IMG/VR virus record: IMGVR_UViG_3300045988_138661
Strand: one strand, 5' to 3'
Length of the DNA stretch: 63,002 nt
From: a virus
Both the position numbers and the translations under genes were made by a program. Below, piece by piece: positions 36,133-58,245 of the stretch; the first letter of the stretch is position 1, and each line of letters starts with the position of its first letter. Below the pieces are notes generated by a model, which had not been told where the DNA came from, did not search any database, and saw only the letters and a list, made by a program, of their open reading frames with translations.

Positions 36133-36231
36133 GAATAATTATTAAAACCTACTTTTATAGTAGGTTTTAATTGATTTTTAATAAAAAATAATGTATTATA
36201 ATTATAAGATAAATGAAAAGGGTGTGTTTAT

Positions 36232-38016: not shown

Positions 38017-38027
38017 TAGGAGATTAT

Positions 38028-38906: not shown

Positions 38907-39030
38907 TTTTAACTCCTTACTATTTTATTTAGTAAGGAGTTTTTTTTTTATTTAACCAGATTAAATTAATGACTTCTTATAAATTTTTAAATTTTATAGA
39001 AATAATAAAATTTATAAGGAGGTCATTTAA

Positions 39031-39585: not shown

Positions 39586-39601
39586 TAGAGGAGGAATTTA
39601 A

Positions 39602-41017: not shown

Positions 41018-42336
41018 CTTCTTCGATTCCTTCTTCTTCTTCTTTAAGAACGGGGGATATATTAAATTGTCCTTATAGTGGATCTGCTAAATCAATTACT
41101 CTTCCAAAAGGCACTTATAAATTAGAATGTTGGGGAGCACAAGGTGGAAATGCAGGTTATTATAGTTATGTTCATTCAACCCCTAATGGAGGAAAAGGTG
41201 GATACTCTACTGGTGTAATCACTTTATCTTCAAGTGTTATAGTATATCTTTATACCGGAGGACAAGGAGGAAGTACTATCGGGAATAAGCTAGACTAGAA
41301 TTCAGTAGCTACAGCACCTGGTGGATTTAATGGAGGTGGCATCGCTAATCAAATGGGAGCCGCTGGTGGTGGTGGAGCTTCTGATATTCGCATAGGCCAA
41401 GATTCTCTCTATGCTCGTATAATCGTCGCTGGAGGCGGTGGTGGTGGAGGCAATGCGAGTAGTTCTACTTTATTATCTTGTGGCGGAAATGGTGGAGGAA
41501 CTACTGGTGGAACTCCACCTAATTAGCACAATAATAGAACCCCAGGAAAAGGAGGAACTCAAACTGGAATAACAGCTAGTCGTTCATCATCAATTTCTGC
41601 GGGATTTGGTAATGGAGCTGGTGGTACGGGAGAAAATCTTCGTGGAGCCGGTGGCGGTGGCTGGTATGGTGGAACTATGGGTGAAAATTCAACTGGCGGA
41701 GGTGGAGGTTCTGGTTATGTATATACTTCCTCAACTGCTTCTAATTATCCATCTGGTTGCTTATTGAATAGCACTCATTATCTTAGTTCTGCTTCTACAA
41801 TAGCTGGCGACACTTCATTCACTTCTCCAACAGGGTCATCTGAAACAGGTCATAGCGGAAACGGGTATATAAGAATTACTATTTAGTCTATTGTTAACTG
41901 GGCTTATTCTACTGTATCAATTCCTGCTCCTACTTATAGTAAATAGGATACTTCTTCTTGGACTTTATCTCCGAGTGCTTGCAGGTATTTTTCTTTTACC
42001 CCTACTATTTCAGGAGATTTTATTGTTTATTCCAATTCTTCAATAGATACTTTTGGCTATTTAACATCAAATATTGTTTCTCTTAATAGTAGTGGATAGC
42101 CTTCTTCTAATATTTTAGCTAGTGATGATGATTAGGCAAAAAAATATGGTGGATCTGGAAGTAATTTTGGTATTTGTTATAAAGTTACTGCTGGAACTAC
42201 TTATTATATATATGTTAAGCCTTATCGTGATAGTACAGCAAATAGTTCAGTATATTTAACTTATTATATGGCTCATCCTGACAGTAGAGTATATGTAAAA
42301 ACAGATAGTACAACATGGAAATTAATAACCAATTAA
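40999..42336 (+). CDS. glycine-rich repeat protein with C-terminal PPC-like beta domain (~445 aa, several in-frame TAG)
   Basis: RBS aaggagga; track ORFs 40978 and 41677 in same frame; ends TAA 42334. Confidence 0.55.
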
Positions 42337-42508
42337 AAAATTTTTTGACATTTTAAAAAAAATAATATATAATATATTTATAAAATAAAGAAAGACCTTT
42401 ACAGCAAAAATAACTTCCAGAATAAACTAATGATTAAGTCATAATCCTTTAAGATTAAAATAATGGTTCAACTCCATTTTCCGGACAAAGTTAAGGTCTT
42501 GTTTTTAT

Positions 42509-42583
42509 AGGCGTCTGGTGTAACGGTAGCATGCGGGTCTCCAAAACCTTGCGGTGTGGGTTCGAATCCTACGACGCCTGCCA
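42509..42583 (+). tRNA. tRNA-Trp (CCA)
   Basis: cloverleaf by hand: acceptor aggcgtc/gacgcct, anticodon loop ctCCAaa, T-loop ttcgaat, CCA encoded. Confidence 0.7.
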
Positions 42584-42667
42584 TTTTAGACAAAAAGAAC
42601 TTTTTTGATTTTATTAAAAATATATAATATAATATATATAGAAAGTTGAGAAAGGAGAAAATAAATA

Positions 42668-42850
42668 ATGAATATTGAAGTTGGTAATTCTTATTGTTTT
42701 GTCCCTTATCGTGGTCGTTGTTATCGTAGACAGTATCTTAAATGTACTGTTATTCGAGTATTAAATTATCAGATTGAAGTCCTTGATGAGCATGGTGAAA
42801 AATGGCTTCTTTCAGAAGATGATTTAATGCCAATTCAAAGACCTTATTGA
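42668..42850 (+). CDS. hypothetical small protein (60 aa)
   Basis: consensus promoter-leader directly upstream. Confidence 0.5.
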   Translation: MNIEVGNSYCFVPYRGRCYRRQYLKCTVIRVLNYQIEVLDEHGEKWLLSEDDLMPIQRPY

Positions 42851-43002
42851 CATTTTATAAAAAATATTATATAATATTTATATAAGATGAGGAAAGAAAA
42901 AAGAAAATAAAAAACTTTGGGTAAAAGAGAAAAGTTGATTTTTTAAAAAAAATATAATATAATAAATATATAAAGTAAGGATTTTAAAAGTCCTTCTTTT
43001 AT

Positions 43003-43550
43003 GGGAGTGTAGCTCAGTTGGTTAGAGCACGCGGCTGTTTACTTGACCTTATCATTTTCTTATAAAAAAATGAAATGAATAGTAAACAAAAAGGTAATAT
43101 TACCGAGCTTGAAACAATGTTAGCATTTATGAAACTTGGTTATAATGTTCTTACTCCTTACGGAGATTGTGAGCGTTATGATTTTGTGGTTGATGTAAAT
43201 GGTAAATTTATTAGAATTCAAGCTAAAACATCGCGAACCGAAGATGAAGGAGCTTCTTTTATTTTTTCTGGTAGAAGTTGCCATAGAAAAGATGGAAGAA
43301 TAGTTCATCATCAATATACTAACGAAGAAATTGATTACTTCGTAACTACTTTTAATGGAAAATGTTATTTGATTCCAGTGGAAGAGTGCGGAGCAGATAA
43401 AAGACTTCGTATTCTTCCACCTAAAAACAATCAAGTAAGAGGTATTACTTGGGCGAAAGATTATGAGTTGGAGGAAGTAGTAAGAAAATGGTAAGCTGAT
43501 GTGTAAGCAACCGCGGTTTGTCGTGAGTTCGAGTCTCTCCTCTCCCGCCA
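43003..43550 (+). tRNA. tRNA gene (Asp-GUC if spliced) split in the anticodon loop by a ~469-nt insertion
   Basis: 5-prime half gggagtgtagctcagttggttagagcacgcgg + 3-prime half ccgcg..gagttcgagtctc..ctctccc g cca; anticodon stems cgcgg/ccgcg complementary. Confidence 0.5.
43075..43494 (+). CDS. ORF inside the tRNA insertion; possible PD-(D/E)xK-type nuclease (139 aa)
   Basis: YDFVVDVNGKFIRIQAK resembles D..(D/E)xK core; location inside a tRNA gene. Confidence 0.35.
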   Translation: MNSKQKGNITELETMLAFMKLGYNVLTPYGDCERYDFVVDVNGKFIRIQAKTSRTEDEGASFIFSGRSCHRKDGRIVHHQYTNEEIDYFVTTFNGKCYLIPVEECGADKRLRILPPKNNQVRGITWAKDYELEEVVRKW

Positions 43551-43790
43551 TTGGGGCGTTAACACGGATTTTGTAAGTTTAAACTACCACCGATCGAAAG
43601 AGTATGTGGCTTGCGGAAAACGCCCGACTAAATATAAGGAAGCGAAGTAAAACTTATTGTGAAATAGTAGCTATACTCACATTAATCAAGGCTATGGGTT
43701 CTGGGAATCCAAAAGAGTAAAAGTTGGTTCGAGTCCTAACGATTGACGAAGTTCGAATCTTCGCGATGTGGGTTATAAAACTCTTTATTT

Positions 43791-43867
43791 GCTGGTGTAG
43801 CCGAATTGGCATAGGCGAATGATTTAGGATCATTAATCTGAAGGTTCGAGTCCTTTCTCCAGCACCA
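43791..43867 (+). tRNA. tRNA with anticodon UAG (Leu by anticodon) but short variable loop; A73
   Basis: acceptor gctggtg/ctccagc, anticodon arm aatga-tttagga-tcatt, T-loop ttcgagt. Confidence 0.55.
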
Positions 43868-43954
43868 GTCCCTCCCTGGGAATGCGTTGAAGGCTTGCGA
43901 ACTTTGAACGCAGGTGGTTGGCAACTCCATCTATACATAAATAAGTTGCGTTTT

Positions 43955-44033
43955 GGGCTTCGGGACTGCATGGCGTGGTCGTCTGTCTTGCACACAGAAA
44001 ATCAGGTGAGTTCGATTCTCACGAGGTCCACCA
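43955..44033 (+). tRNA. tRNA-Ala (UGC)
   Basis: G3-U70 pair present, anticodon loop cttgcac, T-loop ttcgatt, A73 CCA. Confidence 0.55.
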
Positions 44034-44433
44034 TTATATGGTTATATGGTGTAAAGAGTAAGCACGGCGGTTAAATAAACCGCAAATTTAGGAGCATTGC
44101 CTAATATAACCGATTATATGATTGGTGATAAAAGCAGCCAGAAATATTATCTTATTAATTAAAACTTAATACAATATACTAAACGATATAATAGATAAGG
44201 TATATTAATAAAATTTATATACAATAAGATAATATATACAAAATGCTAATAGTGATTTTGGTTCCAGCGCTAGGAAAGTTTTTCCCACTACGAAGAGAAA
44301 ATTTGAAGAGTTAGCGTAGTCTTGATAATTATGTCTTAAATAATTATCCCTTTTTGGCTCATAACCTTTTTTTGGATAAAAAATTATATTATATTTACCG
44401 TGATGCCGCGGAGGGACGGCCGCCCTAAAGTGC

Positions 44434-44600
44434 GATTAAGATTAGAAAGAAGTTGGAAGATCTTCTTAAAACTTCCATTAGATTAGAAAGAAGTTGGAAG
44501 ATCTTCTTAAAACTTCCATTAGATTAGAAAGAAGTTGGAAGATCTTCTTAAAACTTCCGTTAGATTAGAAAGAAGTTTTGAGGATTCTTCTTAAAAATCC
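44434..44600 (+). repeat. tandem array of four ~39-nt hairpin-forming repeats (gattagaaagaagttggaagatcttcttaaaacttccatta x3 plus diverged 4th)
   Basis: direct repeats read in sequence; each contains palindrome gaagatcttc within gaagtt..aacttc. Confidence 0.7.
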
Positions 44601-44610
44601 TCTTAGTTAT

Positions 44611-44698
44611 GCTTTGATGGCGGAATTGGCAGACGCGATCGGCTCAAACCCGATTATCCGAATGGATGGTGAGAGTTCAAGTCTCTCTCGAAGCACCA
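44611..44698 (+). tRNA. tRNA-Leu (CAA), class II
   Basis: acceptor gctttga/tcgaagc, anticodon loop ctCAAac, long variable arm atccgaatggat, T-loop ttcaagt, A73 CCA. Confidence 0.7.
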
Positions 44699-44878
44699 GT
44701 CACCTCCTTTAATTAGTAGGTTAATGTGAAAATGATAAGCATTTGTGAGTATTGACGGCGGTGGAGTGGCGACCATCGTTAACAAATATCGCTTCTTGGT
44801 TGGTCTTTTAATCTTTTGACATTTTATAAAAAATAAGTTATAATATTTATAGAAAGTTAAGAAAGGAAGATTTAAATT

Positions 44879-44986
44879 ATGTATAATGATTACTATGAAA
44901 GCTATGCTTGTGAGATTCAGAGTGATGAATATGCTGCTTATCAGGATCTTTCCCTTTATGAAGATGAGGATGAATACCGTGAATAA
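44879..44986 (+). CDS. small acidic peptide (35 aa)
   Basis: ATG at consensus distance from promoter-leader aagga; alternative overlapping frame 44886..45134 exists in ORF track. Confidence 0.35.
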   Translation: MYNDYYESYACEIQSDEYAAYQDLSLYEDEDEYRE

Positions 44987-45138
44987 AAGTTATATGAAAA
45001 AGAACAAGGAAGAGCTTAATGAGTATCTTCAATTGTTTCGGCGCAGAGGATTTAAAGTTCCTGCGAAGAAAGGCAAAGGCTCATTTAAGCGAAAACAAAA
45101 GCACAAAAATCAAGATTATGATAGATGTGCTTAAATAT

Positions 45139-45212
45139 GGCCTCATCTACTAATTGGCTTAGGTGGCAACCCTCTCAAGGTTGAGATGTCAGTTCGAATC
45201 TGGCTGAGGTCA
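45139..45212 (+). tRNA. tRNA-Glu (CUC) candidate
   Basis: acceptor ggcctca/tgaggtc, anticodon arm caacc-ctctcaa-ggttg, T-loop ttcgaat; D-stem needs G-U pairs. Confidence 0.45.
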
Positions 45213-45282
45213 GGGATATAAATTCTACAACCTTCACGTGGTATATCCTGTTTTTACTAATGTAGAATAAAATAAATAATAT

Positions 45283-45360
45283 GCTCCTGTCGACAAGTGG
45301 GCTTAAGTCACTAGCCTTTCACGCTAGAGTCGTTGGGTTCGAATCCCACCAGGAGTACCA
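45283..45360 (+). tRNA. tRNA-Glu (UUC)
   Basis: anticodon arm ctagc-ctttcac-gctag, T-loop ttcgaat, CCA. Confidence 0.6.
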
Positions 45361-45364
45361 TATG

Positions 45365-45439
45365 GCCCTGGGGGCAGTCAGCAGAGCCGCCAGCCTGTCA
45401 CGCTGGAGATAGCGGGGTCGGCACCCGTCGGGGTCGCCA
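45365..45439 (+). tRNA. GC-rich tRNA-like element, possibly tRNA-Asp (GUC) with atypical T-loop gtcggca
   Basis: acceptor ggccctg/cggggtc, anticodon arm ccagc-ctgtcac-gctgg, G73 CCA; ~70 percent GC vs ~35 percent surroundings. Confidence 0.4.
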
Positions 45440-45599
45440 TACGTTGGCATCATTCTTATGTCTATGTTAGTGCGCAGGCGGTCGCACAAAAGCCTCTACA
45501 AAAGTTGGCCATTTGATGAGGTCTATTAAGAATTTTGGGACGATGGGTTAGAAAGTCCAATAGATATAATGGTCGCGAATATTATATCTATCCCATTTT

Positions 45600-45675
45600 C
45601 GGTCAATAGCTTAATTGGTAGAGCATTGTTCTCATAAGACAAGGAATATTAGTTCGATTCTAATTTGACCGACCA
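45600..45675 (+). tRNA. tRNA-Met (CAU), elongator-type
   Basis: acceptor cggtcaa/ttgaccg all Watson-Crick, loop ctCATaa, T-loop ttcgatt, CCA. Confidence 0.7.
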
Positions 45676-45676
45676 T

Positions 45677-45755
45677 TGCGGAAGAGTGAAACGGATTTAT
45701 CATGCCAGGCTCATAACCTGCGCGATATTGGGTTCGACTCCCATTTCCGCAACCA
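45677..45755 (+). tRNA. second CAU-anticodon tRNA (Met or Ile2-lysidine type)
   Basis: acceptor tgcggaa/ttccgca, loop ctCATaa, T-loop ttcgact, CCA. Confidence 0.6.
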
Positions 45756-45787
45756 TAAGACACACACAGCAATCATTTTCTATTGAA

Positions 45788-45860
45788 AATATTTTAGCTC
45801 ATTTGGTAGAGCATTTGTCTGTTAAACAAACTGTAGTTGGTTCAAGTCCAACAAATATTT
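45788..45860 (+). tRNA. tRNA-Asn (GUU), all-AU acceptor stem, no encoded CCA
   Basis: aatattt/aaatatt acceptor, D-arm gctcatttggtagagc, loop ctGTTaa, T-loop ttcaagt. Confidence 0.6.
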
Positions 45861-45905
45861 CATTTGTGTCTTGTAAATTAAAATAATCCAAAAGGAGATA
45901 TCTAA

Positions 45906-46109
45906 ATGAAGTTTAAGTTTAAGCCCGGCGACAAGGTTTATTCTAAGAAGTACGGTAAGGGCTTTTGCCATCAGGTTGATGAACAGGATAAGGATTTTAC
46001 TTATGATTTCCATTTTAAGGATAGCACAATCATTTGGATGTCCCGATATGATGGTGAGCGTTATGTAAAGTTCCGCAGACCGAAGAACGTGGAACCCGCA
46101 AACGCATAA
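45906..46109 (+). CDS. hypothetical basic protein (67 aa)
   Basis: RBS aaaaggagat. Confidence 0.5.
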   Translation: MKFKFKPGDKVYSKKYGKGFCHQVDEQDKDFTYDFHFKDSTIIWMSRYDGERYVKFRRPKNVEPANA

Positions 46110-46323
46110 TTTATCTTTCCTTTCTTTTTGAATAATTAAGGCGCTAACAGCAAACTTTAAAACATCAATGTACGAAATACATATGCTTAGGATTGTTTAT
46201 AGCGTCTTGTTCTATTTATATTGTTGATGTAGTACGATAAATAAAATATCACATTCTTTTAGTCAATTTTAAAGGAAGAATGACTACGTGGAGAATCGGG
46301 AATCGTAGCAATATAAATATTAT

Positions 46324-46399
46324 GGGTGGATAGCTCAGCTGGTAGAGCGTAGGATTGAAGATCCTAGCGTCGGCAGTTCGATTCTGTCTCCGCCCACCA
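46324..46399 (+). tRNA. tRNA-Phe (GAA)
   Basis: gggtggatagctcagctggtagagc D-arm, loop ttGAAga, T-loop ttcgatt, A73 CCA. Confidence 0.75.
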
Positions 46400-46808
46400 A
46401 AAGACCAACAAATGAGGAACCTCTTTGCTGCTCGAGGCTGTTGGAATGCCTGTTAGAAAGGCTACTCTTCTATATATTTAGATATATAGAAACAAAAGAC
46501 TATACAATAGAGAGAGTCTTTTACATCTAGTTCATTTTCTTACTTATCTTTCTGTTTGATTTCCCCTTTCGTTTGATATATAGATTGTTGTTTTCTCTCA
46601 CTTCCATAGAAATGAATTGTTTTTCTACTCTCTATTTTGTTTCATAAAATTAAATAAAAAAGGAGGATTATCTGATATGTTTAAAGATGTTGATGATTTG
46701 ATTTTCGGCGATGAGCGTGAATTTTGTCCTAGCGAACGATAAGCGCGGTCGCCTACCTAATGCTACCATAGGCTGGTTCCAAGTCCAGAAAAGCAGAGGA
46801 GGTAGAAT

Positions 46809-47045
46809 ATGAAAAATATTTTAAGTTATAAAAATCCTTGTTTTAGCGGTCAAGAAATTCTTGATTGGGCTAATTATCAAGTAAATAATAAAACTTCTCA
46901 TTATAAACAGGGATTGAGAGTTTTAAATTTATTTGGTAATATTAAACCTGATAGAAAGTATTATATTTTTAGTAATTATCGCACTTGGCATAGTTATTGT
47001 GGATATAGTATTAAGCATAAACTAATCATATATAGGTATAAATAA
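46809..47045 (+). CDS. hypothetical protein (78 aa)
   Basis: RBS agaggaggt. Confidence 0.45.
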   Translation: MKNILSYKNPCFSGQEILDWANYQVNNKTSHYKQGLRVLNLFGNIKPDRKYYIFSNYRTWHSYCGYSIKHKLIIYRYK

Positions 47046-47046
47046 T

Positions 47047-47134
47047 GGAGCTATGGTGTAATGGTATCACAAAAGCCTGCTAAGCTTTCCTACCTTTATA
47101 GGTAGTCCGCGTTCGACTCGCGGTGGCTCCGCCA
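47047..47134 (+). tRNA. tRNA-Ser (GCU), class II
   Basis: loop ctGCTaa, long variable arm ctacctttataggtag, T-loop ttcgact, G73 CCA. Confidence 0.7.
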
Positions 47135-47161
47135 TTAAATTTTAAATTAAGAGGATTAAGT

Positions 47162-48301
47162 ATGAATATTGTAAATGCTGGTTCTCGCTATCAGATTTAT
47201 GGCGAGGACGTTAAGACTTATAAGCGACTTCCGCTTATGTCTTTTGAAATCTGTTTTAATAAAATGGCAGGTTTTTATCTTTCTTCTCGTCCAGACCTTG
47301 CGGTCAATGAGGAAAAGATTTATGGTAATCACGAAGTTAAAGTCAATAAAGTGCTTAATTCTTTTAAGCATTCAGACCGTAATCTTGGTGTTATTTTAAG
47401 TGGGCAGAAGGGTATTGGTAAGTCATTGTTTGCTCGTATTCTTTCTCATCATGCTATTGAAGATGGTTATCCTGTTCTCTTGGCTAATACTTATATGCCT
47501 GGTATTGCGGATTTTATTTCCAGTATTGAACAGGAAGTTGTAATCATTTTTGATGAGTTTGAAAAGAATTTCTCTAATAGCCCTGACGATCATGCGGGCC
47601 CCTCTCCGCAGGAGGAAATGCTTTCTCTTTTTGATGGTCTTGATAATGGTAAGAAGCTTTTCGTTATTACTTGTAATGAAGTTGATCGACTTAGCACTTA
47701 TCTATTGAATCGGCCTGGTCGTTTTCATTATCATTTTAAGATCACTTATCCAACAGAGGAAGAGATTGTAGAATATCTTACTGATAAGGTTAAGCCTAAA
47801 TATGCGAGTGGTATTAAGGATATTGTGAATTTTTCTCGTACTACCAATATGACTTATGATTATCTTCGCGCGATTGCTTTTGAACTTAATCAGGGTTATG
47901 GTGTGGCAGAAACTCTTGAAGACCTTAATATTTCTCAAACTTCCAATGTTCGTTTCAATATCACTATTACTACGGTAAATGGTGATGTGTATAATACCTA
48001 TGGTGTTTCAGTTAATTTGTTTAGCAATCCTAATGCCAATCATCAAAGATGGTATGATGGTTATACCTCGGATAGTAAGACTATTCGTTATGCCTTGACT
48101 CCTGAATCAATTAAGATTGAAAAGGGTATGATTACGGCCGATCCGAAAAAGGTTGAAATTTACATTGATCCTGACGACTTTTGGACGATCAGCAATGAGG
48201 AAAAGCGTAAGGAAGCTATCGAAAAGGCTAAAAATGAGCGCGTGATTAAGTCTGTTGTTTTAACTAAGGTCGCAAATACTATTGAACAGTATCTTTATTA
48301 A
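47162..48301 (+). CDS. AAA-family ATPase (~380 aa)
   Basis: Walker A GQKGIGKS, Walker B VIIFDEFE, second-region-of-homology NRPGRFHYHF; start moved from 47123 (overlaps tRNA) to ATG after RBS aagaggat. Confidence 0.65.
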   Translation: MNIVNAGSRYQIYGEDVKTYKRLPLMSFEICFNKMAGFYLSSRPDLAVNEEKIYGNHEVKVNKVLNSFKHSDRNLGVILSGQKGIGKSLFARILSHHAIEDGYPVLLANTYMPGIADFISSIEQEVVIIFDEFEKNFSNSPDDHAGPSPQEEMLSLFDGLDNGKKLFVITCNEVDRLSTYLLNRPGRFHYHFKITYPTEEEIVEYLTDKVKPKYASGIKDIVNFSRTTNMTYDYLRAIAFELNQGYGVAETLEDLNISQTSNVRFNITITTVNGDVYNTYGVSVNLFSNPNANHQRWYDGYTSDSKTIRYALTPESIKIEKGMITADPKKVEIYIDPDDFWTISNEEKRKEAIEKAKNERVIKSVVLTKVANTIEQYLY

Positions 48302-48304
48302 CGC

Positions 48305-48345
48305 GACGGCCGATGTAAAGTGAATATACTTTACATCGGCCCCTT
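48305..48345 (+). terminator. rho-independent terminator (ggccgatgtaaagtgaatatactttacatcggcc + T-run)
   Basis: long perfect inverted repeat. Confidence 0.75.
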
Positions 48346-48441
48346 TTGACTTTATAAAAAAAATATTATATAATAAATATATAAAAAATAAGAAAATGCT
48401 TTTGTGATGGAATTGGTATACATACTAGACTAGGTGAAATT

Positions 48442-48597
48442 ATGAATTATACCATAGATTAGTTAATCGCTGAATGGAAAGATTAGATTGCTTCTATGAA
48501 GTATTATAATTATAGTCCAGAGATTATTGATAAAAATGAGTAGATTCTTACTTATTTCCAAGAGTTAAAGGAGTATAAAAATGGAAATCGAACGTAA
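48442..48597 (+). CDS. small protein (~51 aa) with three in-frame TAG
   Basis: MNYTID*LIAEWKD*IASMKYYNYSPEIIDKNE*ILTYFQELKEYK reads as plausible protein if TAG=Q. Confidence 0.35.
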
Positions 48598-49099
48598 GTT
48601 TGATATTAAAAATATTCCTTCTTGGATGAAGGAAAAAAGTGTTCGTCATAAGAAAATTGAGCAAATCTATCTTATGATTGACTTTGATAATGATGGTAAA
48701 GTGCTTGAAGAAATTCGAGCGCGGAAAGCTATTAATCTTAAAACCAATCAAGTTGATTATAAGATGACTTATAAATATGGTGATGGTCTTTCTCGTGAAG
48801 AAATTGAAACGCCAATTTCCTCAGATTTCTATGAAATGATTAAGAAAACTCGACATGAAGGTTATAATCCTATTATTAAGGATTATTACATGGTTGAAGA
48901 TATTTACAATCCTAATCGTTTGATTGAAATTAGTGAAGTTGATGGGAAATTTTGCTATGCAGAAGTTGAATTTCCTGATGAAAAGACTGCTAATGAATAT
49001 ATCTGGCCTTATCCTGAAATCTTAGGGCCAAAAGGTGAAATGACAAATCAGCCTAATGAACGAATGTCAGTTTATTGGTTGAAATCGCGGGTTTCTTGA
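48581..49099 (+). CDS. CYTH / triphosphate-tunnel metalloenzyme family protein (172 aa)
   Basis: N-terminal MEIERKF (ExExK signature of CYTH domain). Confidence 0.55.
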   Translation: MEIERKFDIKNIPSWMKEKSVRHKKIEQIYLMIDFDNDGKVLEEIRARKAINLKTNQVDYKMTYKYGDGLSREEIETPISSDFYEMIKKTRHEGYNPIIKDYYMVEDIYNPNRLIEISEVDGKFCYAEVEFPDEKTANEYIWPYPEILGPKGEMTNQPNERMSVYWLKSRVS

Positions 49100-49110
49100 C
49101 TCGCCGATCT

Positions 49111-49259
49111 GGGGTGGTAAGTCAAAGGCTAGACTAGGCGACTTATCTGTGAGTAGTTTAAATGGTAAAATAACGGTAGTACTACGAAGATTTAGGTTCA
49201 AGGCCTAATTCACAGGCCAAATCGCTCAATGGTGAGTTCGAGTCTCCCTCGCCCTACCA
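49111..49259 (+). tRNA. tRNA gene split in anticodon loop by ~70-nt insertion (Trp-CCA if exon junction follows group-I-like U/G rule)
   Basis: 5-prime half ggggtgg ta agtc aaaggcta gact a ggcga ct; 3-prime half tcgct caatg gtgag ttcgagt ctccc tcgccct a cca; stems ggcga/tcgct pair. Confidence 0.45.
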
Positions 49260-49371
49260 GTGTCATGGTATTTCCTTTCTTAACTAAATAAAGACTCATA
49301 CAGCAACTTTTTTGCTTACAATAAGCGCTTAATGTGGGATTAAGAAGAATGAAGAGTCTTGTAGCGAATTT

Positions 49372-49448
49372 GTCCCCGTAGTTCAGTTGGATAGAACAAA
49401 GGATTTCTAATCCTTGTGTCGGGCGTTCGAATCGCTCCGGGGATGCCA
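49372..49448 (+). tRNA. tRNA-Arg (UCU)
   Basis: D-arm gttcagttggatagaac, loop ttTCTaa, T-loop ttcgaat, G73 CCA. Confidence 0.7.
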
Positions 49449-49508
49449 AGGGTATATTTCATTAATAAAAGTCATTGAAACCTTAAAAATATTAAGGAAG
49501 GTGATTTG

Positions 49509-50366
49509 ATGAAGATATATTCTCCAAGTAATTATTCATATATAAAAATTATTGAAATTCCAAAAGAAGAAATTAGCAAGTTGGATATGGCGTTATGCGC
49601 TCAACCGCGTTAGACTTTAAAGCAATACTATGATAGTTGCGCGGTTAAACCTACTATTTTAACTAATGGTGGTTTTTTTAGCATGGATAATGGTGGCACT
49701 TGTTTTAATTATATGGACGATGGCGTAATCATTAATTCCACTTCTTCTTATAAAGAAGGTTTTGGTATTATTAATGGTGAATTGAAATACGGTATAATTG
49801 GAACAGAAAAGTTTGAAGATTTTGTTAGCGGTTATCCAGTATTGATTAAAGCTGGTAAAAAAGCTCAAATTACTTATGCTAAAGAGTTAAATTATAAAGC
49901 TCGTAGAACAGTATTAGCATATAATAAATTTAATATTTATTTAATTGCTATTGAAAAGCCAGGTATGGCATTTACAGAAATGTAGAATTTACTTTTAGCA
50001 TTAAAAGTTGATTATGCAATTAACCTTGATGGCGGTGGTAGCACAAAAGTTCTTCATAATGGAACTTGTATCACTAAGGATTGGGGCGATCGCGCAGTCG
50101 ATAATGTAATGGCTATTTATCTTAAACCGCAAATTATTTATCGCGTTCAACTTGGTGCTTTTGGATCTAAATCCAACGCTGACGCTTTCTTATTGAAAAT
50201 TAAAGCATTACCTGATACTATTGGAGCAGGTTATAAAAATGCTTATATTCGTAAAATTGGTAAGTATTATAAAGTTCAAGTTGGTGCTTTTTCTGTCAAA
50301 GCAAATGCTATAAAAGTAATTAATGATTTAAAATCAAAAGGTTATAATGCGTTTTTAACTACTTAA
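49509..50366 (+). CDS. cell-wall-associated protein: phosphodiester-glycosidase-like core (NLDGGGS) plus two C-terminal SPOR repeats (~286 aa, two in-frame TAG)
   Basis: ATG 49509 after RBS aaggaaggtg; track ORFs 49683 and 50109 are in the same frame separated by TAG; YRVQLGAFGSKSNA and YKVQVGAFSVKANA SPOR-like repeats. Confidence 0.5.
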
Positions 50367-50561
50367 TAAAACTTTTTGACATTTTAAAAAAAATATTATA
50401 TAATAAATATATAAGTTAAAGACATTAACAGCAATTTTGATTGCATGCCAAGCCGGAAGTGTAGGTTCGATTCCTTTCATCCCCTGCCATTATATAGGGG
50501 ATTAGTTCAATGGTAGAACGCCGTAAATCAATGGTGTCTTGTTCTAATAAGGAGAAATATT

Positions 50562-50768
50562 ATGCTTTGTTATCGTGTTGCGGTTCAAAATAGCCCTTTA
50601 TATTTTCCCGTAGATTTCAAATTCAAAGAAAATGCTGAAATTCTTTGTAATTATTTATCCAAAAGAGATGGAAGAACTGATTATTATATTGCAGAAATTT
50701 TCTATGAAATTGGTCTTCCGGATTATCAAGATGAAAGAGTTCTTTTACTTCTTTCTCAAAATAAATAA
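50562..50768 (+). CDS. hypothetical protein (68 aa)
   Basis: RBS aaggagaa. Confidence 0.5.
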   Translation: MLCYRVAVQNSPLYFPVDFKFKENAEILCNYLSKRDGRTDYYIAEIFYEIGLPDYQDERVLLLLSQNK

Positions 50769-50845
50769 TGTTTGGTAGCTCAGTTGGTTAGAGCACCGTG
50801 CTGATAACGCGGGGGTCGAGGGTTCGAGTCCCTCCCAGACAACCA
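50769..50845 (+). tRNA. tRNA-Ile (GAU)
   Basis: D-arm gctcagttggttagagc, loop ctGATaa, T-loop ttcgagt, A73 CCA. Confidence 0.7.
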
Positions 50846-50922
50846 TAAGACCAGAAGTAACTGCAATTAAAACATCTGACTTAAAATCCGACTCCTTTAA
50901 CAAGGTCTGGTCTTGTTTATAT

Positions 50923-50998
50923 CCGGGTGTAGTTCAGTTGGAAGAACGCTTGATTTGGGTTCAAGAGGCCGGACGTTCAAGTCGTCTCACTCGGACCA
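50923..50998 (+). tRNA. tRNA-Pro (UGG)
   Basis: D-arm gttcagttggaagaac, loop ttTGGgt, T-loop ttcaagt, A73 CCA. Confidence 0.7.
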
Positions 50999-51191
50999 TA
51001 AGACACATACAGCAATTCTTTCATTAGAAAGGTATACAGGTTCAAATCCTGTAAACTCCAATTGGGGTTTTGGCGAAATTGGTTAACGCACATAACTTAA
51101 AATTATGTTTCTAATGTGTCTAGTTTGAAATAACTTTTTTGATTTTTTATAAAAAATATAATATAATATATATAGAAAGTTAAGAAAGGAA

Positions 51192-51395
51192 TTGAAAAAA
51201 ATGAAAAAGATTTCTGTTGATTTTGGTTGTTATTATAATTCCATTGATAATAAGGAGCTTGTAAAAGCAATTACTCGTGCTTCCAATCCCAATGCGGAAG
51301 ATATTATTCTGTATTGTAAGATTGATGATGGCGGTTTTGCTTCTGCTCCCATGTATATGCTCGAAAAGGATTTTGTAGCAACTTTCATTAATTGA
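51192..51395 (+). CDS. hypothetical protein (67 aa), SVDFG N-terminal motif
   Basis: consensus promoter-leader upstream. Confidence 0.5.
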   Translation: MKKMKKISVDFGCYYNSIDNKELVKAITRASNPNAEDIILYCKIDDGGFASAPMYMLEKDFVATFIN

Positions 51396-51404
51396 GTTGC
51401 TTAT

Positions 51405-51480
51405 ACGGGATTAGCGCAGCTGGTAGCGCATCTGACTTACATTCAGGAGGTCGTGGGTTCGAGTCCCTCATCCCGTACCA
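51405..51480 (+). tRNA. tRNA-Val (UAC)
   Basis: acceptor acgggat/atcccgt, D-arm gcgcagctggtagcgc, loop ctTACat, T-loop ttcgagt, A73 CCA. Confidence 0.7.
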
Positions 51481-51730
51481 CCGAACGCAGGATTGGTTCG
51501 ATTCCAATAATCAGCTGTAATTAGTGTAATGGTTGAGCACAGCGTTCGCGTCTTAAATATATCAAAGACACCACAAACTGCGAATTTTCTATAACAGAAG
51601 ATACAGAGATATTGTTTTACCAATAATTTTTGATTGCCTATTGAAGGTGTAGTCTGTTTGGGGTAAGAGAGAATTAATCGACAAATAGATGAAATGAATT
51701 GATTGAAATTCTTTGGTGTCTTGTTTTATA

Positions 51731-51928
51731 CGGCCGTCGCCAAAATGGTAAGGCACAGGACTTTCTCAAAATCAGTTAAATGAGTTATATAATATGACGG
51801 GGTTAAGTAGTATTATATAAGTTCTGTTAGTAGGCTTCCGGTTCTATAAAACCGAGAATGTTGGTGCAAGTCCAACTTTTGAGCCCTGACTCCTGCATCT
51901 GCTGGTTCGAGTCCAGCCGGCCGTGCCA
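51731..51928 (+). tRNA. tRNA gene split in anticodon loop by ~120-145-nt insertion (Gln CUG/UUG or Glu UUC depending on junction)
   Basis: 5-prime half acggccg tc gcc aaaatggtaa ggc a cagga ct..; 3-prime half ..tcctg catct gctgg ttcgagt ccagc cggccgt g cca; all stems complementary. Confidence 0.45.
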
Positions 51929-52061
51929 CCAGAGTTCTGCTAAGTTATATATTTAATTAAGAATTTGCTACTCTGAAAGAATATATAATGAATAAAAAAT
52001 TGGGTCTAAATAACGCAGATAATCCGCTCTGGACCATAAATTCAATTTAAGGAGAAAAATT

Positions 52062-52181
52062 ATGATTTGTCGCACTAAAGAGCATTATGAAAATCGCATT
52101 GCGAAGTTGTATTCCCATAGTGAAGTTATGAATCAGCGCCTCATTAATAAGATGAAGCGAAAACTCCGTAAGTTGAATTAA
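52062..52181 (+). CDS. small basic protein (39 aa)
   Basis: RBS taaggagaaaaatt; unlisted small ORF directly upstream of suppressor tRNA. Confidence 0.3.
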   Translation: MICRTKEHYENRIAKLYSHSEVMNQRLINKMKRKLRKLN

Positions 52182-52190
52182 GGAGTTTAT

Positions 52191-52262
52191 TGAGGGGTAG
52201 CATAGCGGCAAATGCGCTGGTCTCTAAAACCAGATAAGTGGGATCGACACCCACCCCCTCCG
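52191..52262 (+). tRNA. suppressor tRNA, anticodon CUA (reads UAG); Gln-like features
   Basis: acceptor tgagggg/cccctcc (1-72 mismatch), U8 A9, D-arm gcat-agcggcaa-atgc, anticodon arm ctggt-ctCTAaa-accag, 4-nt variable loop, T-arm gtggg-atcgaca-cccac, G73; no encoded CCA. Confidence 0.65.
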
Positions 52263-52496
52263 CGGTGCTAAAAACAAAACCTCCTCGTGGTAGCACTGGG
52301 TAATGCTAATTTGTTTATAAAGGTAATAAAGGCAATATGTATAAAAGTCATTGATAAGTCCTTTTATACGATAGGAAGTAGGATTAGAAGCGTCCATCTT
52401 TTAAAGAGCGAAATGCGGCGATCGGGTATTTCCTTGGTCCAGTAGACACACTATCGGAGGTTGTGGGTTAACCTAATTAAAACCCTCAAAATAAAA

Positions 52497-52859
52497 ATGT
52501 TTGATATTTATTTAAATTATTGCGAAGAAATTTTTGGTGGTTCTCATAAGTTTACCAAAAATGGCCTTGGTTATGATGTTTTAAATATTCATAATAATCG
52601 AGATAATTTTAAAATTATACTTGCGGATAAAGTGCGGTTTGGAGAATATACTTTATTTCATCGTGCTTATGGAGCTAGACTTGATGGTTCTTATGAGTGG
52701 CATGTCCAATTAAAATCTAAATATTTAGATTTTCTAATTTATTGTGCTTTCGCGCATGATTTTAATAAATATAATAACATTCCTTATAATCGAGAAGATT
52801 ATTGGCGTTTTATTAAAGATTATAAGAAATATATTTCGGAGATTAACGTGATAAGGTAG
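52497..52859 (+). CDS. hypothetical protein (~120 aa); 3-prime end overlaps tRNA-Tyr
   Basis: ORF track 52461..52859; ATG 52497 preferred; terminating codon is TAG, so true end uncertain under recoding. Confidence 0.3.
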   Translation: MFDIYLNYCEEIFGGSHKFTKNGLGYDVLNIHNNRDNFKIILADKVRFGEYTLFHRAYGARLDGSYEWHVQLKSKYLDFLIYCAFAHDFNKYNNIPYNREDYWRFIKDYKKYISEINVIR

Positions 52860-52926
52860 ACACCCCGGTCTGTAAAACCGGTGCGCTTAGTCGCTCGAGT
52901 GGGTTCGATTCCCTCATCTCCGACCA
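52837..52926 (+). tRNA. tRNA-Tyr (GUA), class II
   Basis: acceptor cggagat/atctccg perfect, loop ctGTAaa, long variable arm gcgcttagtcgc, T-loop ttcgatt, A73 CCA; two extra nt between acceptor and D-stem. Confidence 0.6.
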
Positions 52927-53445
52927 AAGTATTTGGCAGTATACTTTATAGTAATCGCAAAAACTGCTTATCGTACCTGAGTAAGTGGCAAGGTCGTAGA
53001 TGGCGACGGCGTTGTTTATTTAAAACGATAGGTTTCTTTTCCTAACAGGCTGAAGAAAAGACGTTAACCACAACGAAAGAGTGATTAAGAATAGGTAAGG
53101 AATATTTATATTAAAGGTGATTTGGCACTATTGTTAATTTTAATGTTGATCGGTGCGGAATAAGTAAGATTTCCTATTTAAATCTAACCAAATTGAATAC
53201 TGAAAACAAACCGAGGAAATGCTCTTAAATGGAGTTTGATTGTTCTTTGATGGTGGAAGGAAGCGTAAGGCAACCTGCGGGTTAGCGTTTGCGGAGTAAA
53301 AGAACATGATGACAAAATTTAAGAGCATTTTTGTTTGCTTAAATAAGAGCAGTTAATGTGGCTTGACCGGCATCAAGCGCAAGGACCGAAAACCGCAATT
53401 TAAAATGCTTTTAGAAATTTTTAAGATAAAAAAGGAGGAAATTAA

Positions 53446-54969
53446 ATGTCATATTTTAATGCTAGTTTGGACTGTGAAAATGGTACAATATATTGCTCTG
53501 GATCAGTAGATCCTCCTGTCATTACATCAATAGAACTTTATATTCGTATTAAAATAAATGGTATAGACTCTGGTTATATTTATGTTGGAAGCGGTTCAAA
53601 CAGAATACGTTTTAATGAAGAGATTCCAAATTATGATCATGTTAACTTTGATAGTTATAATGATTATGAATTAATAGTATTAGATGGTGATTTATATGAA
53701 TTAGGTGCTTATACTCCTTGCACTGGTTCTTTTTATGCTTCATCATCGGGAGGAGGAGGAGGAGGCGGTGGATCGGGCGGAACTGATCCAATGTACGCTT
53801 GTTATGATGTTACAACTGGAAATTATATAAACGGTTGGACGCAAGGTAGTTTTGGTATGACCGCTCCCTCTTATGGTAGTAGTTATACTTATTTAGGATA
53901 TTGCCCTGGTAATTCAGAATAGGAATGTTTAAATTATTATACTAATAATGGCACTACATGGAGTCAAGATTCTACTTATATAGTAGGAGATTGTAGTTAT
54001 GTTATATTTTTTTATAGACAAAATTTATCTTATGCTTATATAACTTATTATTATAATGGAGGATCTGGTAGTTATAATAATGGAGCTCAAAATGCTTTTT
54101 CAAGTACAACTCAACCTTGGAACATATATTTAGATACTCCTTCGCGCTCTGGATATAATTTTTTAGGATGGACAACAGACAATTCATCAGCTTATGTGAG
54201 TAGTCCTATACAAGCATATAATGGTTCAACTTATACATTATATGCTATGTGGTAGCGAATTTATTATTATACCTATATAACCTATCACTATAATGGAGGA
54301 TCTGGTAGTTATAGTGATGGATAGCAAGTAAGTTATTCAAGTGTCAATTCTAGTCGAACTATTACTTTAGATACTCCAACAAGAGCAAATTATACTTTTT
54401 TAGGTTGGGGAACCAGTTCTTCTTCTGCTGATATTGGCACACAACTATAGGTGTCATCTACAAGCACTGTATATAAAACTTTATACGCAATTTGGCGTAG
54501 AAATACAATTATTGTAACTTATAATGCAAATGGAGGTTCTGGTGGACCCGGATCATAGACTGTTAATACCAATTCTTCTTTTAATATAAATGGATCTAAT
54601 TTTCCAACAAAGTCTAATTATATTTTTAAAGGATGGTCTACATCGTCTTCAGCAAAAACTGCAACTTATAAAAAAGGAGCAACACCTTCAATTTCTACTG
54701 GTACATCTAATATAACTTATTATGCAGTTTGGTGGCCTGTATTTACTTGGAAAGATTATTCCAGAAGTGAAGCAAATACTTTCGCAGGATATATAAATAC
54801 TTATCTAAGTAAATCAATCTCTTCTATTGATGACACAAATCCTCTGCGGTTAGTTATTTGGTTTAATGCAATAGCTACGGCATTAAACAATAATACTAGA
54901 CTTGCATCAGGAGACGCAAGTTTTAAAGCACAATTAGATACTCTATTAACTGCATATAATAATTATTAA
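53446..54969 (+). CDS. surface-binding / receptor-binding candidate with three Listeria-Bacteroides (Flg_new-type) repeats (~507 codons, about six in-frame TAG)
   Basis: RBS aaaggaggaa; repeats GYNFLGWTT..YTLYAMW, NYTFLGWGT..TLYAIW, NYIFKGWST..YYAVW; ends TAA 54967; terminator hairpin 54977-55010. Confidence 0.55.
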
Positions 54970-55073
54970 AATTAATTGGCCTACTGAGAATTTCAGTAGG
55001 CCAATTTTTTATATTCATAAAGAATATTTTTTTATATTATTTAGAATGATGTAATAAAAGAGGAGGCAATAAG

Positions 55074-55346
55074 ATGTATACTTTAACACATCAAAATGGT
55101 AAAGTTAATTATGGATTAAAAAAATTCATAGTTGATTCTGTTGAAGATATTGAAAAAATTCCAACAATTTCATTGCTCCCTGGCAGTACTGCTTTTATTC
55201 CTAAATCATCAAAATTATATATTTATCAAGATAATAATACTTGGGTTGAACAAAAATCCAATAGTAATAATGGTAGTAGTGGCGGAAGCTCCGAACCTTC
55301 TAATCCTGATAATACATATGTTTGGGATGGCGGTAGTATTGATTAA
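55074..55346 (+). CDS. hypothetical protein (90 aa)
   Basis: RBS agaggaggc. Confidence 0.5.
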   Translation: MYTLTHQNGKVNYGLKKFIVDSVEDIEKIPTISLLPGSTAFIPKSSKLYIYQDNNTWVEQKSNSNNGSSGGSSEPSNPDNTYVWDGGSID

Positions 55347-55360
55347 GGAGGTGCGTTTAG

Positions 55361-56614
55361 TTGGCTGATGTTTATATGAAATCAAAATTTTATTTTAAAC
55401 GCGGAAAGGCAGCTTCTTGGGCTGAAAAAAATGTACTCTTAGGCCCTGGTGAGCCTGGGTTTGAAATAGATACTGGTAGATTGAAAGTTGGCGATGGTAT
55501 TCGCACTTGGAATGATCTTCCTTACCTTACAGAAAATGAAATAAAAAACGGAATAAATGATGTTGCTTATTTTATTGGATAGAAAGAATCTTTACCAGAA
55601 GATCCAAATACTAAAGAAGGTACAATGTGTTTAGTCGGTGAAGATTTTTATATTTATGATGGAAAAGAATGGAGAGAATTAAAAAGCAAATCTTCTCAAG
55701 GAACTATTGAAGTTATAAAAATAAAAGGTGAAGATCAAGAATCTTCTTCTGCTGATGAAGTAGAAATTAATGGAACAAAATATTCCACTATTGAAGAAGC
55801 TATTCAAAATACCACTAATAATGATACAATAATTTTGTAGAAAACAGTCAAAAATATTAACATTCCAGAAGGAAAAAATATTAATATTGATTTAAATAAT
55901 ATCAACATCTTAAATAACGAAGACAATCCAGTTAAAATTAATAATAACGCTTCTCTAATTATTTCGGGAGAAGGATGCGTTGAATGTAATAAACATGGTA
56001 AAGCATCTATTGAAAATAATGGAAATACAACTATTATAAATGGTGAATATAAGCGTTCTATTGATGAAAAAGGTAATGGATATTACGTAATAGTAAACCA
56101 TGGCGAAATGTCTATTTATGATGGAATATTTTCTTCTCCTGGTGGATTATCTAGTATGATTGAAAATGGATATTATGATTATCTTTCTCAATACCATTTA
56201 GGCGAGTCTGCGGAATATCCTAAATTAATTATTAATGGTGGTACTTTTATTAATACTTATACTACTATTAAAAATGATGATGCTGGTATTTGTGAAATTA
56301 ATGGTGGTAATTTTTATGGTATGCTTTATAACGTTGGTAAAAGTTTAACTATAAATGATGGTTATTTCTATACTAATGATGGCTATGAAATTATTCAATG
56401 TAAAAAAAATAATGATGATATTAATGCTGGTATTTTAACTATTAATGGAGGAATTTTTGAAACTACTTGCGATAAAATTCTTTCTAGTATAAATAATGCC
56501 GAAATTATTATTAAAGGTGGAAAATTTAATAAACCTCTACCCGAAGAATTTATTGCTTCTGGATATAAACAAAAATTAGTAGATGGTTATTATAATATAA
56601 TAAAGGAGGGATAA
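55361..56614 (+). CDS. tail fibre / beta-helix-like structural protein (~417 codons, two in-frame TAG)
   Basis: track ORFs 55361, 55625, 56108 share frame 2; N-terminal GDGIRTWNDLPYL motif shared with 56991 and 61419 products. Confidence 0.5.
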
Positions 56615-56615
56615 T

Positions 56616-56960
56616 ATGGCGTTTAATGTTATCTATGCAGATAAAAATAAAATTAAATCCAGCATTAAACAAGGTATTATTCCAAAAGAAAGCCTAATTT
56701 TAACAACTGATGAAAATCAATCAGAGGCTTATTATTATGATGATGTTGGTAAATTAAAATATATTACTAAAAAAACATCATTTAGTTCTTTACTGGAAGC
56801 TCGCATTTGGGTTGCTAAATACGACTATGAAGGTGAGATTATTTCAGTTTATGAAAATAATAAGTGGGTTCCCTATATTGTTGGTAAAAATCAAGTTATT
56901 ACCGCTATTCAATACGGTCAAGATGATGATTATACTCTCATTAATGGTGGAAACGCTTAA
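56616..56960 (+). CDS. hypothetical structural-module protein (114 aa)
   Basis: RBS aaggaggg. Confidence 0.5.
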   Translation: MAFNVIYADKNKIKSSIKQGIIPKESLILTTDENQSEAYYYDDVGKLKYITKKTSFSSLLEARIWVAKYDYEGEIISVYENNKWVPYIVGKNQVITAIQYGQDDDYTLINGGNA

Positions 56961-56990
56961 TATAAAAAAAAATAGGAGGATAATATATTT

Positions 56991-58229: not shown

Positions 58230-58245
58230 GGAGGATATATAATAT

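Follow-up and report, generated by a model that had tools for sequence, protein, structure and literature searches.

To our knowledge, every intron type recognized in bacteria and their viruses is self-splicing (group I or group II), and protein-dependent splicing of transfer RNA (tRNA) is regarded as archaeal and eukaryal. Short phage tRNA introns that lack a ribozyme have been noted once and left unexplained, in the Lak megaphages, whose 'enigmatic' tRNA introns include that of a tRNA-Thr(TGT), which 'itself may encode a tRNA' (Devoto et al. 2019, Nat Microbiol, PMC6784885). The four introns of Table S6 in that study (Tyr, Phe, Thr and Gly) all lie at 36/37, and each consists of a 5' hairpin, an A/U-rich linker and then a tRNA-like domain, with a stem of 7 base pairs (bp) and a T arm, that ends 1-2 nucleotides (nt) before the 3' junction (PMC6784885). 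No literature on the mechanism or follow-up of Lak-type tRNA introns was found. A comparable gene occurs at positions 49111-49259 (+ strand) of a 63,002-nt stretch of DNA from the IMG/VR virus record IMGVR_UViG_3300045988_138661 (the whole stretch is hereafter the window), where a phage tRNA gene is interrupted in its anticodon loop by 73 nt that are themselves tRNA-shaped. On balance, this is probably a functional phage tRNA-Ile(UAU) gene that reads AUA and whose tRNA-shaped insert directs its own removal via tRNA end-maturation enzymes.

Two tRNA halves, at 49111-49146 and 49220-49259, were recognized by sequence inspection, the 73 nt between them lying inside the anticodon loop. The 5' half, GGGGTGG-TA-AGTC-AAAGGCTA-GACT-A-GGCGA-CTTAT, provides the acceptor 5' strand (49111-49117), the D arm (49120-49135), the 5' strand of the anticodon stem (49137-49141) and loop positions 32-36 (CUUAU, 49142-49146). 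The 3' half, AA-TCGCT-CAATG-GTGAG-TTCGAGT-CTCCC-TCGCCCT-A-CCA, provides loop positions 37-38 (AA, 49220-49221), the 3' strand of the anticodon stem (49222-49226, with the variable loop next), the T arm (49232-49248), the acceptor 3' strand (49249-49255), the discriminator A (49256) and CCA (49257-49259), with all elements on the + strand. In silico removal of 49147-49219 leaves a 76-nt sequence that default ARAGORN calls as tRNA-Ile, a full cloverleaf with a 7-bp acceptor stem, a D arm, a 5-bp anticodon stem, a 7-nt loop with U33 and purine 37, a TTCGA T loop, and a discriminator and CCA, in which 20 of the 21 outer pairs are formed (the exception is one T-stem mismatch). An earlier note on this stretch, made from the sequence alone, had described both halves and a full cloverleaf on removal of an insertion of about 70 nt in the anticodon loop, all of which holds. 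Against the possibility it raised that the halves are chance fragments stand the ARAGORN call of the spliced form, the recurrence of the gene, and the pairing and the low variability of the exons given below.

The composite gene recurs at 15 loci in 11 distinct sequence contexts (IMG/VR phage contigs, metagenome contigs and one metagenome-assembled genome, MAG), and the locus is without a relative among the INPHARED phages. An uninterrupted copy of exactly this tRNA body was found in none of the IMG/VR records, metagenomes or GTDB genomes scanned. The 5' exon is invariant in 9 distinct versions, save position 32 (C or U), and the 3' exon belongs to a T-arm/acceptor/CCA repeat family common to other tRNAs of the cluster. 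In its split form, the gene was undetected by default ARAGORN and by Rfam cmscan of 40000-55000 (15 kb, E<=1), and folding of the whole region gave no signal (z = -0.42). Relaxed ARAGORN (introns allowed, 80% threshold) does call the gene, a call set aside as evidence because shuffled windows give 111-144 calls.

Several joins of the two halves give formally valid 7-nt loops, namely CU with CCAAA (Trp), CUU with CAAA (UCA) and CUUAU with AA (Ile). Two related phages (L006 and L013) carry an uninterrupted 75-nt tRNA between the same flanks as those of the window (...CTCGCCGATCT upstream and CATGG(T/C)ATTTCCTTTCTTAA downstream). This tRNA, GGGGTGG-TA-GTTT-AATGGTA-AAAC-G-GAGGA-CTTATAA-TCCTT-TGTTG-ATGAG-TTCAAT(C/T)-CTCTC-CCGCCC(C/T)-A-CCA, has the discriminator A and the acceptor 5' strand (GGGGTGG) of the window's outer tRNA, differs little from it in the acceptor 3' strand (CCGCCCC or CCGCCCT versus TCGCCCT) and, of all tRNAs in the comparison, matches the spliced outer tRNA best. 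Its loop is CTTATAA, with the anticodon UAU, and removal of the 73 nt between CTTAT and AA restores this loop exactly, as no other pair of cuts does. Because the uninterrupted tRNA at the same site has this loop, the junction is placed at positions 36/37 (CUUAU joined to AA), and the predicted mature product is tRNA-Ile(UAU). The predicted spliced junction reads GGCGACUUAU joined to AAUCGCU, and the 30-mer that spans it is GACTAGGCGACTTATAATCGCTCAATGG. Bacterial tRNA-Ile determinants comprise A73, U12-A23, C29-G41, A37, A38 and C4-G69 (PMC9976931), and the outer body carries all of these except C4-G69 (it has G4-C69 instead), so that the anticodon and the remaining determinants agree on isoleucine, with which the tRNA is predicted to be charged. 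AUA is used at 10.8 per 1000 codons, and a tRNA-Ile(TAT) is also carried by Lak phages (Devoto et al. 2019, PMC6784885).

The earlier note had instead suggested a tRNA-Trp(CCA) with an intron at 33/34, placed by a U/G rule and duplicating the intact tRNA-Trp at 42509. The CUCCAAA loop of that model is formally valid, ARAGORN accepts that spliced form too, and the acceptor stem has G1.U72 and U5.G68, all in its favor. However, the syntenic allele without an insert combines this acceptor stem with the anticodon UAU, the U/G rule applies to group I introns, of which the insert is not one, and the analogous 33/34 reading of a second split gene, the tRNA-Gln gene described below, gives different offsets and disagrees with an uninterrupted relative of that gene (in L015). 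Moreover, the outer body has A73 (49256), whereas the tRNA-Trp at 42509 has G73, a major determinant that bacterial tRNA-Trp requires (PMC9976931). The Trp model is thus barely credible and is rejected: what stands of that interpretation is the interrupted tRNA gene, and what falls is the junction, the identity and, with them, the duplication of tRNA-Trp.

The insert (49147-49219, + strand) reads CTGTGAG-TA-GTTT-AAATGGTA-AAAT-A-ACG-GTAGTACTA-CGA-AGAT-TTAGG-TTCAAGG-CCTAA-TTCACAG-G-CCA and has an acceptor-like 7-bp stem (49147-49153 with 49209-49215), a D arm (49156-49171), a reduced anticodon-like arm with a 3-bp stem (49173-49175 with 49185-49187) and a 9-nt loop, a T arm (49192-49208), a discriminator G (49216) and CCA (49217-49219). 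A local scan matched it to the Rfam tRNA model RF00005 over 49147-49216 (34.6 bits, gathering score 29, E 4.8e-6), with the acceptor, D and T arms aligned and the anticodon arm alone aberrant. Default ARAGORN rejects the insert alone as a tRNA, and a reading of the 9-nt loop as an anticodon loop was dropped for want of a U33/R37 frame; the insert is tRNA-shaped but is not a decoding tRNA, as it has no usable anticodon arm. It begins exactly at position 1 of the inner acceptor stem and ends exactly at A76 of G-CCA, and the terminal GCCA is invariant in all versions. The inner unit has the features expected of a ribonuclease P (RNase P) substrate, including a coaxial acceptor/T helix of 7+5 = 12 bp, U49146 at -1 and a 3' GCCA, and its T loop is 7 nt long (TTCAAGG or TTCAAAT across versions).

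The tRNA shape of the insert had been overlooked in the earlier note. Derivation of the inner unit from the L006-type tRNA, considered for the similarity of their D arms, was rejected, as global alignment brings it no closer to that tRNA than to others. The 9-nt loop (49176-49184) contains a 6-8-nt palindrome that is kept across alleles (TAGTACTA, AGTACT and AGCGCT; central TA to CG), a format that resembles a kissing-loop dimerization site; alternatively, it could be a recognition site at the DNA level.

The insert is neither a group I, a group II nor a bulge-helix-bulge intron. Group I introns have a P3-P9 core of at least about 200 nt, a U at -1 paired with G in P1, and a 3'-terminal omega-G; the insert is 73 nt long, has no Intron_gpI match at E<=10 and ends in A. 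Group II introns have six domains, including domain V, and extend over several hundred nt, and the insert, at 73 nt, likewise has no match to such an intron in Rfam. No ribozyme family of Rfam was matched in the insert at E<=10, and the opinion of the earlier note that an insertion of this size is far too short for group I or II is borne out. A bulge-helix-bulge has two 3-nt bulges that contain the splice sites and a 4-bp helix between them, while the present junction is an internal loop of 5 nt (CUUAU) by 6 nt (GCCAAA) between 5-bp and 7-bp helices, in which the 5' site is at the base of a helix and the cuts do not lie in 3-nt bulges.

Pairing was scored in an alignment of the 9 distinct versions, and variable columns were counted across the 11 distinct contexts. 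Standard pairs occupy 97.2% of the pair cells of the composite structure, compared to 38-52% in slid-partner controls. Three two-sided compensatory changes occur in the alignment, all within helices of the insert: position 7 of the inner acceptor stem (G-C, A-U or G.U), the anticodon-like stem (U-A to C-G) and the inner T stem (A-U to G-C). The substitutions in exon stems all keep pairing (acceptor U.G to U-A and G.U to G-C). The exons, with 5/76 variable columns, are the least variable segment of the neighborhood, compared to the insert (16/74, Fisher p=0.009), the last 200 nt of the upstream open reading frame (ORF; 42/200, p=0.004) and the downstream spacer (17/116, p=0.11), and the insert changes about three times as often as the exons. 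This pattern of substitution argues for a functional tRNA with an intervening sequence constrained only in structure and speaks against a dead gene.

A second split gene, tRNA-Gln(UUG), occurs at 51730-51928 (+ strand), with exons at 51730-51764 and 51888-51928 and an insert of 123 nt (51765-51887). This insert has a stem (CTCAAAA/TTTTGAG), a T-arm-like segment (GTTGG-TGCAAGT-CCAAC) and the tail C-CCT; it has diverged too far to match the Rfam tRNA model, and its minimum-free-energy fold is a four-way, cloverleaf-like junction. The split gene was undetected by default ARAGORN and Rfam, and, the CUA suppressor aside, no further tRNA-Gln is called in the window. An unrelated contig (L015) carries a tRNA without an insert whose D arm and anticodon stem are identical to those of the split gene and whose loop is CTTTGAC (UUG, Gln). 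Removal of 51765-51887, the inner unit plus 4 nt, joins CTTT to GAC and matches L015, although a one-base leftward shift is equally possible due to a repeated T; the spliced form is called tRNA-Gln by ARAGORN, and its predicted junction sequence is GGCACAGGACTTTGACTCCTGCAT. The position in the host loop differs between the two genes (36/37 in Ile, 35/36 in Gln), while the register to the inner fold is equal (at the stem base on the 5' side and 4 nt past the stem on the 3' side). The alternative 33/34 junctions (Trp CCA and Gln CUG) yield offsets of (3,+1) and (2,+2) and disagree with both uninterrupted relatives. These sequence registers suggest that the cuts may be set by the insert's own tRNA fold.

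Since the cut positions follow the inner fold rather than the outer tRNA, the insert is proposed to direct its own removal, with the ordinary enzymes of tRNA end maturation as the agents. At the 5' junction (49146/49147), cleavage by RNase P would leave a 3'-OH on the 5' exon; at the 3' junction, an endonuclease acting like the Thermotoga-type tRNase Z would cleave right after the inner CCA, so that the 3' exon would carry a 5'-phosphate. The outer acceptor and anticodon stems would keep the exon halves together, to be sealed by an RNA ligase of the Rnl type (3'-OH/5'-P) from the phage or the host. Ligation would be required because a nicked anticodon loop inactivates tRNAs, as is known from anticodon nucleases. 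The model needs neither a ribozyme nor an archaeal-type splicing endonuclease. On precursors that contain CCA, the T. maritima tRNase Z cleaves exactly behind A76 (PMC1540738), the precursors of two-piece transfer-messenger RNA (tmRNA) are cut by tRNA-processing enzymes (PMC11915505), and Rnl or RtcB ligases are common in large tRNA-bearing phages (PMC7824862).

Several observations weigh against such a removal. No RNA ligase, kinase-phosphatase or RtcB was found in the 14 window ORFs tested (Pfam and/or PHROGs), the window being about a third of the genome, with about two thirds outside it; the only gene that emerged from this search for ligase and end-healing functions was a Metallophos phosphoesterase (12455-13186). 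In bacteria of the Bacillus type, precursors with CCA escape RNase Z, which CCA blocks, and are shortened by exonucleases; such trimming could not free the 3' exon, which counts against the model if the host is of this type. The tail of the Gln insert is C-CCU, or C-UCU in L003, and not NCCA. The rule of (0,+4) for the two cuts fails on the Lak introns, such that RNase P plus an after-CCA cut is not universal for the class. Finally, divergence among the copies is low (97% mean column identity), hence the support from covariation is modest.

An alternative is that a tRNA-like element, mobile or placed by recombination, inactivated a dispensable tRNA whose halves are never joined, although RNase P and exonucleases might free the tRNA-like RNA inside. 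Three relatives (L007, L009 and L010) lack any tRNA at the site, so the tRNA is not essential, and the locus acts like a swappable cassette; a disrupted gene would also fit the missing uninterrupted copy of this tRNA body in the IMG/VR, metagenome and genome sets scanned and the missing ligase among the window ORFs tested. It is nonetheless unlikely, as conservation in the region is highest in the exons and the insert changes about threefold more often, all exon stem substitutions preserve pairing, and the ends of the insert restore, to the nucleotide, the canonical 7-nt loop of the uninterrupted allele, an exact restoration that tRNA-Gln shows independently.

Two further alternatives accept that the insert is removed and differ as to the agent. 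A dedicated endonuclease of unknown family, from the phage or the host, might recognize the outer anticodon stem, the 5x6 internal loop and the inner stem and make both cuts at this two-helix junction, in the way of archaeal and eukaryal splicing endonucleases, followed by RtcB ligation (2',3'-cyclic phosphate/5'-OH), in which case the tRNA shape of the insert would be only a handle or a historical relic. The misfit of the Lak introns to the RNase P register would be accounted for, the tRNA-Asn intron described below, which lies at 36/37 as well and has neither a tRNA-like domain nor a group I core, suggests an anticodon-loop machinery, and the twister-like and hepatitis delta virus (HDV)-like motifs of the cluster would make cyclic-phosphate ends, for which enzymes are likely. 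The absence of a bulge-helix-bulge motif and of any recognized candidate endonuclease gene in the window, together with a 5' cut that differs relative to the outer tRNA (Ile 36/37, Gln 35/36) and so speaks against an outer-tRNA ruler, makes such an enzyme decidedly improbable. Still further from the evidence, and very unlikely, is a novel small self-splicing or self-cleaving RNA, in which the 73-nt insert would catalyze its own excision. Small ribozyme motifs do occur elsewhere in the tRNA cluster and the insert has conserved structure, but the tRNA fold fully accounts for that structure, the insert matches no Rfam ribozyme family at E<=10, and we know of no ribozyme of about 73 nt that performs both cleavages and the ligation.

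Introns of other types occur in the same phage group. The tRNA-Asn(GUU) at 43003-43550 (+ strand) has an intron of 469 nt (43040-43508) at 36/37 that encodes a PD-(D/E)XK endonuclease (ORF 43075-43494; Pfam PF11645, E 1.4e-31) and is almost wholly coding, only about 35 and 14 nt being non-coding. The anticodon GUU and the first three intron bases can pair with the last six (GTTTAC/GTAAGC), an uninterrupted relative of this tRNA in L023 has the loop CTGTTAA, and no group I or other Rfam match was found for the intron at E<=10. I-Ssp6803I, the endonuclease of a tRNA-fMet intron, presumably belongs to PF11645 as well. In L013 (~3070-3300), an intron of yet another type, containing a GIY-YIG endonuclease ORF, follows CAGCC-TTC in a tRNA-Arg(TCT) that has no interruption in L006 and L014. 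A minimal twister-P1-like ribozyme lies between tRNA genes at 46754-46804 (41.1 bits versus a gathering score of 67.2, local E 6.4e-8), keeping UAA, GGU-CCAAG-CC and GAGG and lacking one stem of the model. An HDV-like motif at 52264-52318 (HDV-F-prausnitzii model, 27.7 bits, below threshold) begins one base after the tRNA(CUA) at 52191-52263, which is without an encoded CCA, unlike its neighbors. The position of this motif directly after a CCA-less tRNA suggests ribozyme-made tRNA 3' ends.

The split tRNA-Ile gene is part of a promoter unit, consisting of an ORF at 48581-49099, the split gene and a tRNA-Arg at 49372-49448, and headed by a promoter-like site on the + strand (TTGACT-17-TATAAT, 11/12, 48346-48374) with a terminator-like hairpin before it at 48308-48341. 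The site belongs to a 74-nt promoter-like repeat (TTGACA-17-TATAAT in A/T-rich context) that occurs eight times across the tRNA cluster (42322-51189), and promoters of the sigma-70 type point to a host resembling Firmicutes or Mollicutes and away from Bacteroidota. A reading of the ORF at 48581-49099 as a CYTH enzyme was not upheld (PDB matches at E~0.45 and no Pfam match) and is a weak lead.

The window is part of a large phage genome with a GC content of 34.7%; its tRNA cluster (42.4-53 kb, + strand) has 18 genes by ARAGORN, including one with the anticodon CUA. The related contigs are IMG/VR viral genomes of 159-197 kb, metagenome contigs (at least one of which is titled as a human-gut metagenome assembly) and one MAG contig. 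The latter, L026 (CAMELE010000001.1, 163,874 bp), from an 'uncultured Mollicutes bacterium' MAG, has the exact insert allele of the window and is most likely this phage genome, either mis-binned or a hint of the host. Many late-looking or structural ORFs are continuous only if TAG is sense, including 33328-35424 with 8 in-frame TAGs; in-frame TAGs number up to 9 per ORF in 33328-42336 and 53446-61332 and are found in few ORFs upstream of ~24.6 kb, and TGA is never in frame. Based on these ORFs, the tRNA(CUA) and the GIY-YIG motif of L013, which reads YIG*S where Q is expected, the phage is concluded to be stop-codon-recoded, with TAG read as sense, and the L013 motif points to TAG as Gln.

Other features were observed in and around the cluster. 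A repeated motif, AAAGAC..TACAGCAA, occurs in the leaders upstream of some tRNAs (42377-42407, 46499-46529 and 49276-49306), and the copy at 49276 is within a conserved spacer of ~110 nt between tRNA-Ile and tRNA-Arg that has an AAGACTC/GAGTCTT closing stem. Between tRNA-Asn and tRNA-Leu, a non-coding stretch of 240 nt (43551-43790) is 97-98% conserved in L024 and L025 and is closed by a helix, GGGGCG...CGCCC, and contains two hairpins that resemble T arms (GTTGG-TTCGAGT-CCTAAC and CGAAG-TTCGAAT-CTTCG); it has no Rfam match, and its fold z-score is -0.64. Directly upstream of tRNA-Trp, a tRNA-like gene (42416-42486, Rfam 37.5 bits) is given a 2-nt 'anticodon' (tt) by ARAGORN, which is to say an abnormal anticodon loop, and three near-perfect 41-nt tandem repeats (44439-44577) lie just upstream of tRNA-Leu(CAA). 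A YcaO cyclodehydratase (36232-38013; PF02624, E 5e-28) follows three long ORFs with CxxxCxxC motifs resembling those of radical S-adenosylmethionine enzymes; the region 29587-38016 would be a peptide-modification gene set in a phage, with Pfam support for YcaO, the only ORF of the set tested.

Compared to the protein-spliced tRNA introns of archaea and eukaryotes, the insert is likewise short, located in the anticodon loop and devoid of a ribozyme, with exons held by the mature domain, and protein enzymes followed by ligation would be expected to remove it. Those introns differ in using a bulge-helix-bulge, which is absent here, and a splicing endonuclease with RtcB or Trl1, while the insert is a whole tRNA mimic whose cuts track the insert and not the mature domain. 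We know of no splicing endonuclease in the setting of a bacterial virus and its host. The group I introns of bacterial tRNAs (cyanobacterial tRNA-Leu(UAA) and tRNA-fMet, the latter with the PD-(D/E)XK homing endonuclease I-Ssp6803I) also occupy the anticodon loop of a bacterial-type tRNA, but have a core of at least ~200 nt, compared to an insert of 73 nt that lacks an Intron_gpI match and whose last base is A. In the MALAT1 mascRNA, a tRNA-like fold within a longer transcript defines the RNase P and 3'-end cuts, and in permuted two-piece tmRNA an inner tRNA-like fold sets these cuts while the flanks stay base-paired (PMC11915505). In neither are the flanks religated, whereas a continuous loop for decoding requires a ligation step here. 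Phage T4 Pnkp and Rnl1 provide a phage pathway that seals a break in the anticodon loop while the halves remain paired, though as a repair response to host anticodon nucleases and not as gene-encoded splicing, and no such ligase was found in the window ORFs tested. If removal is directed by the insert's tRNA fold, as is favored here, it is possible, though doubtful as yet, that there is a third tRNA-splicing route, in bacteria, in which tRNA-mimic introns are cut by RNase P and an after-CCA endonuclease and sealed by a repair-type ligase, without the help of a ribozyme or of a dedicated splicing endonuclease.

Because standard finders miss such genes, as they did tRNA-Ile(UAU), tRNA-Gln(UUG) and tRNA-Asn(GUU) here, estimates of what recoded gut phages can decode are too low, and naive junction rules assign the wrong amino acid. 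The Lak introns remain the closest relatives in kind. Both they and the split tRNA-Ile belong to TAG-sense gut phages with large tRNA sets, have an insert in the anticodon loop at 36/37 and a tRNA-like domain (7-bp stem and T arm) that abuts the 3' junction, occur as natural alleles with and without the insert, have no Rfam ribozyme match and have had no explained mechanism. They differ in that the Lak introns begin with a hairpin and an A/U-rich linker (27-32 nt for the two) and end 1-2 nt after the stem, neither of which is seen here, whereas the present tRNA-like unit starts at the junction and ends with a discriminator and CCA (4 nt); the Lak lineage is also larger and poorer in GC (~540 kb and 26%, versus about 160-197 kb and 35% for the present phages). 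The split tRNA-Ile is thus the same phenomenon in a different and simpler architecture, and is the cleanest case so far: its insert consists of a single tRNA-shaped unit that runs exactly from position 1 to CCA, the junction can be placed to the nucleotide from alleles that have or lack the insert, and the phage has a second gene that follows this rule, through which an 'enigmatic' annotation becomes a mechanism that can be tested at the bench.

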